This document shows positions 23,891 to 35,692 of a stretch of 48,643 nucleotides of DNA, piece by piece. The stretch's first letter is position 1, and every line of letters begins with the position of its first letter. The notes beneath the pieces were generated by a model. It was not told the DNA's origin. It did no database searches and saw nothing but the letters and a program-made list of their open reading frames with translations. This DNA is from Candidatus Micrarchaeota archaeon (lineage in GTDB: Archaea; Micrarchaeota; Micrarchaeia; Anstonellales; Bilamarchaeaceae). The position numbers and the translations under genes are program-made. The stretch covers positions 1 to 48,643 of the forward strand of contig JACCLI010000011.1 in NCBI GenBank assembly GCA_013425455.1, given 5' to 3'.

Positions 23891-24237
23891 ATTTCTATTT
23901 CCTTGTGCGGAACAGAAGAGAGGGCGTTCCTCAGCCTGTAATCGTCTATGATTATGCCCGCCTTCCTGACCTTTTCCTCGCGCTTGTTCGCTTCCCCGAG
24001 GATGGATTCCACGTAGAGGCCGAAATCCGAAAGGTTTTCCGAGCCGTCCTCCATCATCTTCTCAATTATTTTCGCGATGAAAGATTTTCCCATCTCGTCG
24101 CTTCCCCAGATGCTCATGGCGAGGGCGACCTGGTCCACGAAGAAGTCCTTGTGCTTGTCTTCCATCTTCTCCCAGACCTTGACTATTTTCTTTTTTGTAT
24201 TTTCATCAACGTCTTCGAATACCCCCATCATCACCAC
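23887..24237 (-). CDS. Hypothetical acidic protein (116 aa), last gene of the DRG operon
   Basis: Protein-like ORF that overlaps the upstream small ORF by 7 nt. Confidence 0.5.
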   Translation of the reverse strand: MVMMGVFEDVDENTKKKIVKVWEKMEDKHKDFFVDQVALAMSIWGSDEMGKSFIAKIIEKMMEDGSENLSDFGLYVESILGEANKREEKVRKAGIIIDDYRLRNALSSVPHKEIEI

Positions 24238-24458
24238 CTGTCCAACGCCTTCACGCCTTTATCGAGGGCGTCCGCAAGCTTCTCAGCCAATTGCTGGGAT
24301 TTCTTGTCAACCTGCACTTCCGGAAGCTCCTGTATCCTCTTCCTGGGGACCTCGCCCGAAAGCTCCCCGTGCCTCCTTTCTATCCTTTGCTCAATCTCCC
24401 TGAAAACATCAGAATAAGACCGTTCCCGGACAATTTTCTCAGTCGGCTCCCTTGCCAT
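24231..24458 (-). CDS. Hypothetical charged helical protein (75 aa)
   Basis: Same strand and tight spacing within the DRG operon. Confidence 0.45.
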   Translation of the reverse strand: MAREPTEKIVRERSYSDVFREIEQRIERRHGELSGEVPRKRIQELPEVQVDKKSQQLAEKLADALDKGVKALDRW

Positions 24459-24500
24459 CCCAACACCTATTCATTCTCCTTATTTGGATTTTTATTATTA

Positions 24501-24767
24501 TCACTTGATTTTGATGTCGAACTCCGGCTCGATTTTTCTCCATTCATCCATATAATACTGGTAAAGCGCCTTGGTCGTTGAATCATACACGAGGCTTGTC
24601 TTGCTTGCGGCCTCGGTGGGCCGGTCTATCTCTATCAACGGAAACCGGTAGGTCCAGGGGATTTTCTCCCTCAATTCGTTCCTCTCCACCATGGAAACCA
24701 GCTTCCGCTCCTTCTTCCTCGCCTCGCACCAGTCTACTACCTGCTTTATTTCCTTTTCAGTCGGCAT
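24501..24767 (-). CDS. Hypothetical protein (88 aa)
   Basis: Starts 5 nt downstream of the DRG stop. Protein-like composition. Confidence 0.5.
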   Translation of the reverse strand: MPTEKEIKQVVDWCEARKKERKLVSMVERNELREKIPWTYRFPLIEIDRPTEAASKTSLVYDSTTKALYQYYMDEWRKIEPEFDIKIK

Positions 24768-32053: not shown

Positions 32054-32934
32054 GCATGAAAATAGTAATATCGGATGATTTGGACGCGGGAGCGGTGGAG
32101 AACATCAAGAAGGCCGGGCATGTAGTGTATAAGCCCGCGAACCTTGATACGGAACTCGCGGATGCGGATGCGCTGGTGGTGCGGAGCGCCACCAAGGTTA
32201 CGAAGGAGTTTTTGGGGAAGGCGCCGAAGCTCAAGATAGTTTTCCGCGCCGGGGTCGGTGTGGACAACATTGATGTGGAGGCGTGCAAGGCGCGGGGGAT
32301 AAAGGTGCAGAACACCCCTTCCGCTTCCACCAACGCGGTCGCGGAGATTGCGATGGGGCTGGTCATAGGGCTTTTCAGGAACCTTGGGAGGGCGCACCAC
32401 TCCATGAAAAGCGGGAAATGGGAGAAGAAGGCGCTCATGGGGCATGAGATAGAGAGGAAGACCTTGGGGATTATCGGGTGCGGAAGGATCGGGTGCGCGG
32501 TTGCGCACAAGGCGCACGCGCTCGGGATGAAGGTGGTTGCATATAACCCGCCTCCGAGAATTGATTGTGCGGGAGTCCATTATGTGGAGCTGGATGAGCT
32601 GCTTGCGCACTCGGATGTGATTACGATACATGCGGGGGCTTCCAAGGAAACGGAGAACATCATTAATGCGAAGAGCATTGGGAAGATGAAGAAGGGGGCT
32701 TATATCATAAATTTGGCGCGGGGAAACATGGTGGACGAGGAGGCGCTCTATAATGCGCTGAAGGAAGGGAAACTGGGCGGCGCTGCCCTGGATGTGTATA
32801 AGGAGGAACCTTACAAGGGGAAATTGCTGGAATTGGAAAATGTGATATTTACGCCCCATATCGGGGGGAGCACATTTGAGGCGCAGGATAAGATAGGGGC
32901 TGTTATTGCGGAGGAGCTGAAGAAAGGAATTTAA
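32050..32934 (+). CDS. serA: D-3-phosphoglycerate dehydrogenase-type 2-hydroxyacid dehydrogenase (no ACT domain)
   Basis: NAD fold GIIGCGRIGCAVA, NLARGNMVDEEAL, and catalytic His in TPHIGGST. 4-nt overlap with the aminotransferase. Confidence 0.8.
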   Translation: MSMKIVISDDLDAGAVENIKKAGHVVYKPANLDTELADADALVVRSATKVTKEFLGKAPKLKIVFRAGVGVDNIDVEACKARGIKVQNTPSASTNAVAEIAMGLVIGLFRNLGRAHHSMKSGKWEKKALMGHEIERKTLGIIGCGRIGCAVAHKAHALGMKVVAYNPPPRIDCAGVHYVELDELLAHSDVITIHAGASKETENIINAKSIGKMKKGAYIINLARGNMVDEEALYNALKEGKLGGAALDVYKEEPYKGKLLELENVIFTPHIGGSTFEAQDKIGAVIAEELKKGI

Positions 32935-32965
32935 TGCTTAGAGGAGATGGAAAAGAGGGATTCAT

Positions 32966-33184
32966 ATGGCAAAAGTAACACATCTGAAGGACATATGCAT
33001 AGGCTGCGGCGCGTGCGTGGCGGTCTGCCCAAAGTACTGGGAGATGAAGGGGGACGGGAAGTCCCACCTGAAGGGCGCGAAGATGATAAACCCGGACCAC
33101 TTTGAGCTTGTTCTCCCGAATGCGGAGTGCAATGCCGAAGCGGCGGCATCCTGCCCCGTGACCTGCATAAAAGTAGTAAAGTGA
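32966..33184 (+). CDS. Small single-cluster 4Fe-4S ferredoxin
   Basis: CIGCGACVAVCP plus a distal CPVTC. Confidence 0.8.
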   Translation: MAKVTHLKDICIGCGACVAVCPKYWEMKGDGKSHLKGAKMINPDHFELVLPNAECNAEAAASCPVTCIKVVK

Positions 33185-33188
33185 GACT

Positions 33189-33707
33189 GTGGGCATCTAC
33201 ACCCGTACTGGAGATTCAGGGGAAACCACTACTAATGTAGGGAAGAGGGTGAGGAAGGACGACCCTCTTGTGGAGGCTTACGGCTGCCTGGACGAGCTGA
33301 ACTCTTTTTTGGGCCTTGCCCTTGCGCAATCCTCGAGCAAGCACACGAGGGCGGTGATTGCGCGGGTGCAGAAGGAGATATTTGATTTGGGCGCTTCCAT
33401 TTTCTCCGGGCAGATACCTGTCGGAGAAACCAATGTGAAGGCATTGGAGAAGGATATAGATGAAATAGAGGCGAGATTGAAGCCCTTGAAACATTTCATC
33501 ATTCCGGGCGGAACAAAAGAAGCGTGCTACCTGCACTGTGCACGCACGGTTTGCAGGAGGGCGGAAAGGAGGCTTGTTGCCGCTAAGGCGGACAGGATGA
33601 TGGTTAAGTACCTCAATAGGCTGGGGGACCTGCTCTTTGTGCTTGCGAGGCATGAGAACGCGAAGGCTGGAGTGGGTGAGGAAATTTGGAAGAAGGGGAA
33701 AATCTGA
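33189..33707 (+). CDS. PduO-type ATP:cob(I)alamin adenosyltransferase
   Basis: N-terminal MGIYTRTGDSGETT, FIIPGG, RTVCRRAER and YLNRLGDLLFVLAR. GTG start. Confidence 0.85.
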   Translation: MGIYTRTGDSGETTTNVGKRVRKDDPLVEAYGCLDELNSFLGLALAQSSSKHTRAVIARVQKEIFDLGASIFSGQIPVGETNVKALEKDIDEIEARLKPLKHFIIPGGTKEACYLHCARTVCRRAERRLVAAKADRMMVKYLNRLGDLLFVLARHENAKAGVGEEIWKKGKI

Positions 33708-33710
33708 TTT

Positions 33711-34460
33711 TCATATTCTCAGCACGCCCCTCAGCAGAACGCTGGTTGAATCCGGCCCATCGAATGAGAAGTTGTGCCTTACCTGTGCGCCAAGCCCGAG
33801 CCAGGAAGTAAACATATAGTCCAAGGCCGCTTCCCCGGATACCGATTTTCTGTTAAGGACCCAGTCCCAGTATGTTTCAACTCTCAAATCGTCAGTTATG
33901 TTCATCCAGAAGTAAAGGGCAAGCTTAGTGTTGAGGAAATCCGTTGCTTCGCCGTGGTTTTGGGTGCCCACCGAGAAGGAAAGGACTCTCAATACTAGAT
34001 TGATGTCCTGGCTTATGAACGGGATGAAAACCAGCCCTGCGCGGAGCGAATCTTCCCCCGGTTCGATCTCATATTGTACAAGGGGGCCGAGCCAGCCAAA
34101 GAGCCTGTGCAGCCGGAACTCGGTATGGCCGAATTTCAATTCCGGAGAATCGGCCTCGGCTGCCAGCGCATTCACTATCCCGGTGGCGGCAATTCCGTAG
34201 GGCAGCCTCCCGCCCCCGCTCACCCTGAGGTTCATGCCGTGTGAGCCGTTCTGGATGCCGTATGAATATGCCGGATAAATAGTGAGCGACGCATCTTCAG
34301 CGTTCGCTGTTTTCGGTGCGAATGTGTATAGCGCAAGCGCGGCCGCGACGCCATAAATCCCAAACTTGGCCTTCCTGAAAAAGTTCCTTGTGCGGCTTCC
34401 CTTCCGCGCGTGATGGACATGCGGTTCCTTGTTCAAGTGCATTTCTTTTGTGGTATTCAT
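33711..34460 (-). CDS. Secreted protein with beta-barrel-like alternating-strand pattern
   Basis: Signal peptide FGIYGVAAALALYTFAPKTANA/ED. It is followed by about 10 short amphipathic strands (LTIYPAYSYG, MNLRVSGGG, LRAGLVFIPFI, INLVLRVLSFSVG, KLALYFWMNI, LRVETYWDWVL, AALDYMFTS, LGLGAQVRHNF, SVLLRGVLRI). Confidence 0.5.
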   Translation of the reverse strand: MNTTKEMHLNKEPHVHHARKGSRTRNFFRKAKFGIYGVAAALALYTFAPKTANAEDASLTIYPAYSYGIQNGSHGMNLRVSGGGRLPYGIAATGIVNALAAEADSPELKFGHTEFRLHRLFGWLGPLVQYEIEPGEDSLRAGLVFIPFISQDINLVLRVLSFSVGTQNHGEATDFLNTKLALYFWMNITDDLRVETYWDWVLNRKSVSGEAALDYMFTSWLGLGAQVRHNFSFDGPDSTSVLLRGVLRI

Positions 34461-34517
34461 GTAGTAGTTAGTTCAAGTATGTGGTATTTATTAACTTGTG
34501 GCATCCCTACAATACCA

Positions 34518-34527
34518 CTATAAATAT
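34518..34527 (+). promoter_or_regulatory. TATA-like box CTATAAATAT
   Basis: Lies 19-28 nt upstream of ATG 34546 (leaderless-type spacing). Confidence 0.45.
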
Positions 34528-34545
34528 TTGGCGCGTGAACTACAT

Positions 34546-35304
34546 ATGAAAATAGGGGAGTTGTTCAGGGACGTTGGCTTCTCGGAAGGTGAGGGAAGGG
34601 TTTATGCGGCAATCCTTGCGCACAAGTCGCCCACGCTGCAATCCATCCATGAGGATACCGGGATAGAGAGGAGGAACGTATATGATATTGTGAATAAGCT
34701 CATTTCTAAGGGGCTGGCCACGTATTACGTGGAAAACAAGAAGAAGATATATCACGTGACAAACCCGAACAAGATTCTGGGCTACCTCAACGAGCAGGAA
34801 GAGGAGATTGAAAATTCAAAGAAGCTGGTTGGCGCGCAGCTTGGCGACCTCACCAGGATGTATGAGGGCAGCAAGGAAGAGATACACGCCGAATTGTACC
34901 GGGGAAACGAGGGCGTGAAAACCCTGATGGAGGAGATGCTGGATTACAAGGACCATTATTTCATAGGCGGAAATTTAGGGGTGGTGAAATTCATAGGGGA
35001 GCTGTTCTGGACCAAGTGGAACAAGAAGAGGGAAGAAAAAAAGATTAGGTGGCATGACATAATAACCTGGCATAGCTTCGTAAGGGCCAATGACAGCAAG
35101 AGGCTTATGAAGATGAAATACTGCGAATACAAATTCCTGCCGAAGGAGTTCTGGTCGCCGCACGTCATCTTCATATATGGGGACAAGGTCGCGAATGTGC
35201 TGTGGAGGGAGCAGAGCTTCGCATTCCAGATCCAGAATGAGAGCATCGCGAAGAGCTACCTGGATTACTTCAATTACTTGTGGAAAACGCTCCCTAAGCC
35301 ATGA
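34546..35304 (+). CDS. TrmB-family transcriptional regulator
   Basis: N-terminal wHTH FSEGEGRVYAAILAHKSPTLQSIHEDTGIERRNVYDIVNKLISKGL plus a C-terminal TrmB-like domain. Confidence 0.75.
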   Translation: MKIGELFRDVGFSEGEGRVYAAILAHKSPTLQSIHEDTGIERRNVYDIVNKLISKGLATYYVENKKKIYHVTNPNKILGYLNEQEEEIENSKKLVGAQLGDLTRMYEGSKEEIHAELYRGNEGVKTLMEEMLDYKDHYFIGGNLGVVKFIGELFWTKWNKKREEKKIRWHDIITWHSFVRANDSKRLMKMKYCEYKFLPKEFWSPHVIFIYGDKVANVLWREQSFAFQIQNESIAKSYLDYFNYLWKTLPKP

Positions 35305-35353
35305 GCGCGGAAATGCGGCAACGAATTAAAAAACAACGGCGCCTTATGGAAGC

Positions 35354-35692
35354 ATGGACTGGAGCTTAACTGCCCGGATTCTGCTCGTGGCGCTTATGCT
35401 TTATGTGTTCTATGTGGTGGGGGTACCTTTGCCCGCCCTTTTGGTTTTGGGGATACTCCTTATTGCATTTGTTCTGCTGCGGGGGCATGCATATAGGCAG
35501 ATAGACCTCTTTCTCACAAACAGGTTCCCGTCCATGGCCGGATGGGCGCCCTGGCAGAAGATGCTGCTCGTCGCGATAGTGTTCCTGCTTGCATATGTGT
35601 TGCTGAAGCAGGCGGTTTTCTGGCTTTTGAAAAGTGCGGGGATGGACGTCCAGCAGATGATGCTGGACAGCATCCAGTCAATGAAGAAATGA
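35354..35692 (+). CDS. Small membrane protein (3 helices)
   Basis: Hydrophobic helices ILLVALMLYVFYVVGV, LLVLGILLIAFVLL and LLVAIVFLLAYVLL. Confidence 0.5.
   Translation: MDWSLTARILLVALMLYVFYVVGVPLPALLVLGILLIAFVLLRGHAYRQIDLFLTNRFPSMAGWAPWQKMLLVAIVFLLAYVLLKQAVFWLLKSAGMDVQQMMLDSIQSMKK

Follow-up and report, generated by a model that had tools for sequence, protein, structure and literature searches.

Outer-membrane-type transmembrane beta-barrels are usually regarded as a mark of diderm bacteria and of the organelles that descend from them, and their insertion is thought to need machines of the Omp85 family. Small porins of this class can be under dedicated control; kdgM and nanC, for example, are controlled by KdgR and NanR, respectively. 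In the double-membraned archaeon Ignicoccus, the outer-membrane pore protein is described as helical and is not known to be a beta-barrel. It has been reported that ARMAN cells and the cultivated Micrarchaeon ARM-1 have both inner and outer membranes (PMC4243693, PMC8784108), whereas the cultivated Ca. Micrarchaeum harzensis was described as having no second membrane but an S-layer (doi 10.1101/2021.04.28.441871). For the DPANN lineage Altiarchaeales, a paper from 2025 mentions a possible distal relative (PopA-like) of a 16-stranded bacterial outer-membrane protein (OMP) (PMC12228718). Our literature searches found no report of such a beta-barrel from Micrarchaeota.

We analyzed a stretch of 48,643 nucleotides of Micrarchaeota DNA (the window, by which we mean this whole stretch) that comes from a 986-kb, 85.8%-complete bin of a lineage from freshwater sediment. 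An open reading frame on its minus strand at 33711..34460, stop codon included, encodes a 249-aa precursor (P0001) that ends in ..SVLLRGVLRI; frame and terminus are exactly as given by a first-pass annotation, which had interpreted the product as a secreted protein resembling a bacterial outer-membrane barrel. We refer to it as the barrel gene. Comparison with the congeneric ortholog in genome G101 gave a dN/dS of 0.13, which demonstrates that this is a real gene under purifying selection, and its start codon and upstream control region are kept in four assemblies.

The annotation had also raised the question of a chimeric contig. The GC content (0.537) and GC3 (0.648) of the barrel gene are like those of its neighbors, and its tetranucleotide profile falls within one standard deviation of the window mean. 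The surrounding genes encode a D-2-hydroxyacid dehydrogenase, a ferredoxin, a cobalamin adenosyltransferase, TrmB-type regulators and a copper locus, and this gene order is repeated in one congeneric genome and on two independent metagenome contigs. Furthermore, a contig of 2206 nt, assembled separately from what is probably the source run, spans 32788-34993 with a single mismatch, bridging the gene and both of its neighbors at a depth of about 10, like that of the contigs on either side. Normal composition, conserved gene order and the bridging contig together demonstrate that the locus is not chimeric.

The precursor begins with a putative extended signal peptide (residues 1-54; 34299..34460, minus strand), delimited by charge and hydrophobicity analysis and by the conserved residues P49, A52 and A54. 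Its n-region (residues 1-32/33) is unusually long and basic, with a net charge of about +7, and is followed by an h-region of 17 hydrophobic residues (33-49) and a c-region, KTANA, with AxA at positions -3/-1. Pro-49 (-6) and Ala-52 (-3) are nearly invariant throughout the family, and Ala-54 (-1) is invariant in an 11-sequence alignment. The basic N-terminus, hydrophobic signal and AxA site (KTANA/ED) recognized in the first-pass annotation are thus borne out, and the basic n-region, the h-region and the conserved P-x-x-A-x-A are those of a probably cleavable Sec signal of the kind found in bacterial OMPs. In the predicted model (see below), residues 23-47 form a helix. We rejected Tat export: the n-region, which reads SRTRNFFRK, has no twin-arginine motif, and TatC was not found in the source genome. 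The genome does contain a weak archaeal signal-peptidase-I-like open frame; this, together with the failure to find TatC, makes Sec export with cleavage likely. The precursor would therefore leave the cell through Sec, and archaeal signal peptidase I would probably cut after Ala-54 (ANA/ED). The genome's sole match of this kind (G000 contig C67, about 24069-24701, minus strand; loci L058/L059) falls within an open frame of 349 aa; it is under the family cut-off and consists of two separate stretches, and the frame may encode a divergent or extended archaeal signal peptidase.

The remainder of the protein (residues 55-249; 33714..34298, minus strand) is the mature domain. The protein was modeled with AlphaFold2 from a shallow alignment (A4) of 24 sequences, 22 of them distinct, collected by protein and whole-genome searches. 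The best model had a mean pLDDT of 81 and a pTM of 0.69, and all five models had mean values of 73-81; within the mature part, most 10-residue blocks exceeded 90 and the blocks lay mostly at 85-96. With the single sequence as input, the pLDDT was 34 and no usable model was obtained. The prediction contains 12 antiparallel strands of 9-13 residues each between residues 58 and 248, connected by turns of 2-13 residues. About 10 short alternating strands had been expected from the first-pass annotation; the alternation stands, and the predicted number is 12.

Structure comparisons placed this model among bacterial outer-membrane proteins. Foldseek searches of the PDB returned outer-membrane barrels only, with KdgM (4pr7) as the top match (E 4.8e-6). 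VIA-align, an all-against-representatives alignment independent of Foldseek, ranked Tsx (1tlw) first at Z 17.0, followed by NanC (Z 16.7), PcoB (7pge; Z 16.6), OMPLA (1fw2; Z 15.7), VhGalP (Z 15.2) and KdgM (Z 14.9). The top 12-stranded matches aligned over 164-186 residues at 3.2-3.7 A, and the best superpositions, on closed 12-stranded barrels, covered 178-186 residues at 3.2-3.5 A, whereas soluble 10-stranded barrels reached Z 10-12 over merely 121-137 residues. In addition, a protein language-model search found KdgM-family clusters as the nearest neighbors (score 0.96-0.97). A fold other than a barrel would have spoken against the first-pass interpretation; the prediction is instead a 12-stranded barrel of outer-membrane type, and its even strand number and antiparallel hairpins agree with the closed barrels of the bacterial OMP class. 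The mature part, about 195 residues long, is thus predicted to form a monomer-sized 12-stranded antiparallel barrel of bacterial outer-membrane type, and DSSP, sequence and superpositions suggest its closure, the outward orientation of one face and the size of the pore.

The two faces of the 12 predicted strands differ strongly. One face is 70% hydrophobic and 10% polar or charged, and the opposite face 34% and 35%, a contrast that none of 2000 within-strand shuffles equaled; it therefore places the alternation of hydrophobic and polar residues, as claimed earlier, beyond chance. One face is clearly hydrophobic in 10 of the 12 strands, an alternation like that of bacterial OMPs, and probably points outward; its aromatic residues, judged from sequence and DSSP, appear to cluster at strand ends. 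The polar face carries all of the invariant or near-invariant residues R116, R158, Y183, E195, E210, Q226, R228 and R244. On the predicted strands, this is the pattern expected when a barrel is embedded in lipid and has a polar lumen, and it is the opposite of that of a lipocalin-like binder; a soluble binder of this kind, offered as an alternative in the first-pass annotation, fits poorly with 12 long strands, a hydrophobic face and conserved charges on the polar one. The hydrophobic face would meet lipid, and the conserved Arg, Glu, Gln and Tyr residues would point into the lumen.

The C-terminus differs between the two clades that make up the family. The window protein ends in ...RGVLRI, and the termini of its clade are I, L or M, so that the aromatic C-terminal beta-signal of bacterial OMPs is absent there. 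In the larger clade the terminus reads ...ARVGVRF, and a terminal F is found in 12 of the 22 distinct family members, mainly in this sister clade.

We found no sequence-level relationship between this family and any known one. Neither the window protein nor any other member matched a Pfam or NCBIfam family, and for Pfam this held for 17 family members at E up to 10. A family-profile search of PDB sequences gave just two chance matches with E above 3, and phmmer against 1.84 billion representatives found three proteins, none of them bacterial. When the family was compared by hhalign with an alignment of seven KdgM/NanC/OmpL sequences (from E. coli and plasmid records), a probability of 38.9% was obtained over the signal peptide and first strands only; with the mature parts alone, the score was 19.8, compared to 16.5-23.6 for reversed-sequence controls. 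Homology to KdgM was therefore rejected, as the 38.9% is lost without the signal peptides and reversed controls score as high. Uroviricota proteins among the language-model neighbors and a viral fold search led only to phage-borne OMP-like barrels with no specific tie to the family, and phage relatives were set aside as well. Thus, the protein has the form of the 12-stranded barrels of about 200-215 residues that characterize KdgM/NanC and does not match their Pfam profile (PF06178): as modeled, it is shaped like a barrel of the KdgM/NanC/Tsx class, yet it is no demonstrable member of those families.

The distribution of the family is narrow and patchy. Of 99 genomes from one GTDB Micrarchaeota family, 11 contain it, whereas it was detected in none of 77 genomes of the order's other families and in none of the samples of the class and phylum; one genome carries three copies. 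A metagenome scan with the close alignment yielded only two loci, and all named relatives are designated 'Candidatus Micrarchaeota/Micrarchaeia archaeon'. With 11 of 99 genomes carrying the family, it is no core envelope component. In a crude scan of all open frames of the genome for a signal plus strand alternation, which is a weak test, the barrel gene ranked fifth and no other convincing small barrel emerged.

Weak matches also led to two further Micrarchaeota families of similar design. Their members, of 234-242 aa, have a long basic signal with an AxA-E/D site, are beta-rich and end in Phe; examples lie at 1249-1953 of locus L054 (minus strand) and at 1486-2214 of locus L057 (plus strand), the latter adjoined by a divergent TrmB gene. 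One of these families aligns to the barrel-family profile over 142 columns with a probability of 65.8% (direct member match, E 5e-4), and the other resembles it in the signal region only. Of the 99 genomes, 14 have one of these two families and 9 have the other, and when the barrel family is included about 31 carry at least one of the three.

The barrel gene has a dedicated neighbor. A gene for a TrmB-family regulator (34546..35304, plus strand; Pfam TrmB E 2.4e-13) is transcribed divergently from it; the frame opens at a GTG at 34498, but translation probably starts at a conserved ATG at 34546. The 85-nt control region between the two genes (34461..34545), read directly, contains two TATA-like boxes of archaeal type at leaderless-type distances, one for the barrel gene at 34485-34494 on the minus strand (TTAATAAATA, 25-34 nt before the ATG) and one for the TrmB gene at 34519-34526. 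Both are overlapped by a perfect 8-bp inverted repeat, GTGGTATT-N22-AATACCAC (34481-34488 and 34511-34518), which is a candidate TrmB operator within a putative promoter region. Across four orthologous loci the core of this region hardly differs, though the coding flanks vary. Furthermore, 9 of 10 related loci have a divergent regulator, either TrmB or a tandem Lrp/AsnC protein, beside the barrel gene; in the window the TrmB-type regulator would control expression of the barrel.

We also made two observations on these related loci. The partner regulator at L005, L006, L014, L015, L018 and L020 is an unusual tandem of two Lrp/AsnC units of about 325 aa, with two AsnC-type HTH domains and a ligand-binding domain. 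The second concerns L004 581-1420 (plus strand) in genome G113, where no divergent regulator accompanies the barrel homologue; before it lies a gene for a 279-aa protein with no Pfam match, whose stop overlaps the start of the barrel gene.

Barrel and TrmB genes make up a stretch of about 1.64 kb (33708..35345) between the cobalamin adenosyltransferase gene and a gene for a 112-aa membrane protein. In the congeners G329, G412 and G113, the serA-ferredoxin-adenosyltransferase locus continues straight into the 112-aa gene or a wHTH gene, and barrel and TrmB are both absent at that site; the uninterrupted locus of these congeners demonstrates that the two genes are present or absent as a unit. 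Two of the three have a family member at some other place in the genome. The borders of the stretch are not marked by flanking direct repeats of more than 6 nt. The best explanation is that the family is specific to one Micrarchaeota lineage, in which it is gained or lost together with its regulator, and is no recent import from bacteria.

The surroundings of this stretch vary further. On a groundwater metagenome contig (run X4), position 33705 is joined directly to 35698, skipping 1992 nt, which matches the arrangement in G113; the joint is only a hint, because its shorter side comprises 33 letters and the likeness threshold was relaxed. The 112-aa hydrophobic protein just past the two-gene stretch (35354-35692, plus strand) has no Pfam match; its gene is at this locus in G329 and G412 and is missing in G113, and is a second variable element there. 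A link between barrel and copper locus, prompted by the PcoB fold match, was rejected: the barrel genes of relatives lie elsewhere, and the copper locus of congeners has no barrel. The two adjoin here because the two-gene stretch happens to sit at this place, and a PcoB-like role is without contextual support, since the copper locus is not linked to the barrel gene in relatives.

What membrane could hold such a barrel? Our tentative first choice, which falls somewhat short of being probable, is a regulated small porin-like channel in an outer lipid layer of the organism itself. The barrel would act as a small channel for polar solutes in a lipid layer that lies beyond the cytoplasmic membrane, and this second layer would most likely be the outer membrane that electron microscopy has shown in some Micrarchaeota. 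Of the alternatives offered in the first-pass annotation, an unusual envelope fits best with this published microscopy and is contested by the S-layer report. In the genome, which is 85.8% complete, a search for Omp85/BamA (PF01103) had no match at E up to 1, in line with the expectation that BAM-type machinery would be missing; the control search found matches in 8 of 14 control genomes. With no Omp85/BamA found, insertion would be spontaneous or would occur via some further factor. We infer the outer-membrane location, the channel function, BAM-free insertion and the outward face from the evidence above. Against this reading stand the prediction of the fold from a shallow alignment and the failure to find Omp85/BamA, as well as the non-aromatic terminus in the window clade, the S-layer of Ca. 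M. harzensis and the occurrence in just 11 of 99 genomes. Taken together, the fold prediction and the chimerism check failed to overturn the overall interpretation as an outer-membrane-like barrel, which is supported.

Some of the same evidence has been weighed for a barrel that is secreted and inserts into the membrane of a host as a monomeric pore, tapping host solutes for a dependent symbiont, i.e. a weapon or feeding device rather than part of the organism's own envelope. With no BAM-like machine found, self-insertion is needed anyway, and the patchy distribution, the paralogues and the presence or absence as a unit fit an accessory host-interaction gene better than a core component of the envelope. 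We nevertheless consider such a host pore unlikely, as known secreted beta-barrel pore formers are oligomers to which each subunit contributes hairpins and are not pre-formed monomeric 12-stranded barrels; moreover, the structural matches are all resident outer-membrane proteins, and it is difficult to see how a barrel with a fully hydrophobic exterior could pass through a soluble secreted stage.

The N-terminal segment could alternatively remain uncleaved and anchor the protein in the cytoplasmic membrane, with an external barrel that binds or carries a hydrophobic ligand, e.g. a host lipid, and a hydrophobic face buried by ligand or by oligomerization. The long helix of the model (residues 23-47) and the long basic n-region, which resembles that of a signal anchor, are in keeping with this, and the weaker fold matches include soluble 10-stranded binders (nitrobindin, Rv2717c-like), with Z about 10. 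An anchored binder is rather improbable, however: the conserved -3/-1 AxA and the Pro at -6 are those of a cleaved signal, the conserved charges lie on the polar face, which is the reverse of a hydrophobic ligand pocket, and the best matches (164-186 residues) are 12-stranded membrane barrels.

We give a similarly low probability to the possibility that the barrel model is an artefact and that the protein is really an exported, beta-rich surface protein of a different fold, for instance a sandwich, a solenoid or the subunit of an amyloid-like fiber. The pLDDT of 34 for the single-sequence model, the alignment of only 22 distinct sequences and the failure to find a sequence-level link to any solved barrel would fit such an error, but the five models agree (mean pLDDT 73-81), the 12 hairpin-connected strands are long enough to span a membrane, and two structure aligners and the language-model search independently indicate one 12-stranded family group. 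The least likely rival, that the gene is for a KdgM/NanC-type porin recently taken up from a bacterium or is a bacterial contaminant of the bin, is hardly credible: KdgM-family porins are the top fold and language-model matches, but the 17 members have no Pfam KdgM match at E up to 10, the mature-part score lies within the range of the reversed controls, no bacterial match was found among the 1.84 billion representatives, the loci are all from Micrarchaeota, and the GC, GC3 and tetranucleotide profile are native, with archaeal neighbors and a bridging contig, so that acquisition from bacteria, the remaining alternative of the first-pass annotation, is unsupported.

It is possible, though on balance doubtful, that some Micrarchaeota have a true outer membrane with several lineage-specific barrel families of about 240 aa, each with an extended basic signal peptide and all assembling without a machine of the Omp85/BAM type. 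In that case, Archaea would have native OMP-type transmembrane barrels, either independently invented or diverged from the bacterial ones beyond sequence recognition. A conserved archaeal family with this predicted fold would be a molecular marker that could help to settle the dispute over a second membrane in Micrarchaeota, and a test case for BAM-free assembly, possibly in ether-lipid membranes. Were it to enter the membranes of a host instead, the barrel would represent a novel type of pore through which DPANN symbionts feed. With its small size and its lack of cysteines, the protein is tractable and its refolding may be feasible.

Among known systems, the KdgM/NanC porins (PF06178; 4pr7, 4fqe, 2wjr, 8xua) are most like the predicted protein in that they share a signal peptide, 12 antiparallel strands, short turns and a charged lumen. 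Their structures superpose on the model at Z 14.9-16.7, they are also its language-model neighbors, and a dedicated regulator gene adjoins the barrel gene here as a further likeness. The size is also similar, with a mature part of about 195 aa here and of about 215 aa in KdgM/NanC. The protein differs in having no detectable sequence relationship to these porins, an archaeal host in which Omp85/BamA was not detected, a terminal Ile (in the window clade) in place of Phe, a far longer basic n-region and no adjoining sugar-catabolism genes. Tsx (1tlw), PcoB (7pge) and OMPLA (1fw2) are the best or near-best fold matches, over 178-186 residues, and share no sequence similarity with it. Compared to the Altiarchaeales relative of 16-stranded OMPs, the barrel described here has 12 predicted strands and belongs to another family. 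It resembles the situation in the double-membraned archaea Ignicoccus and Altiarchaeales in that any archaeon for which a second membrane is reported would need pore proteins there (PMC4243693).
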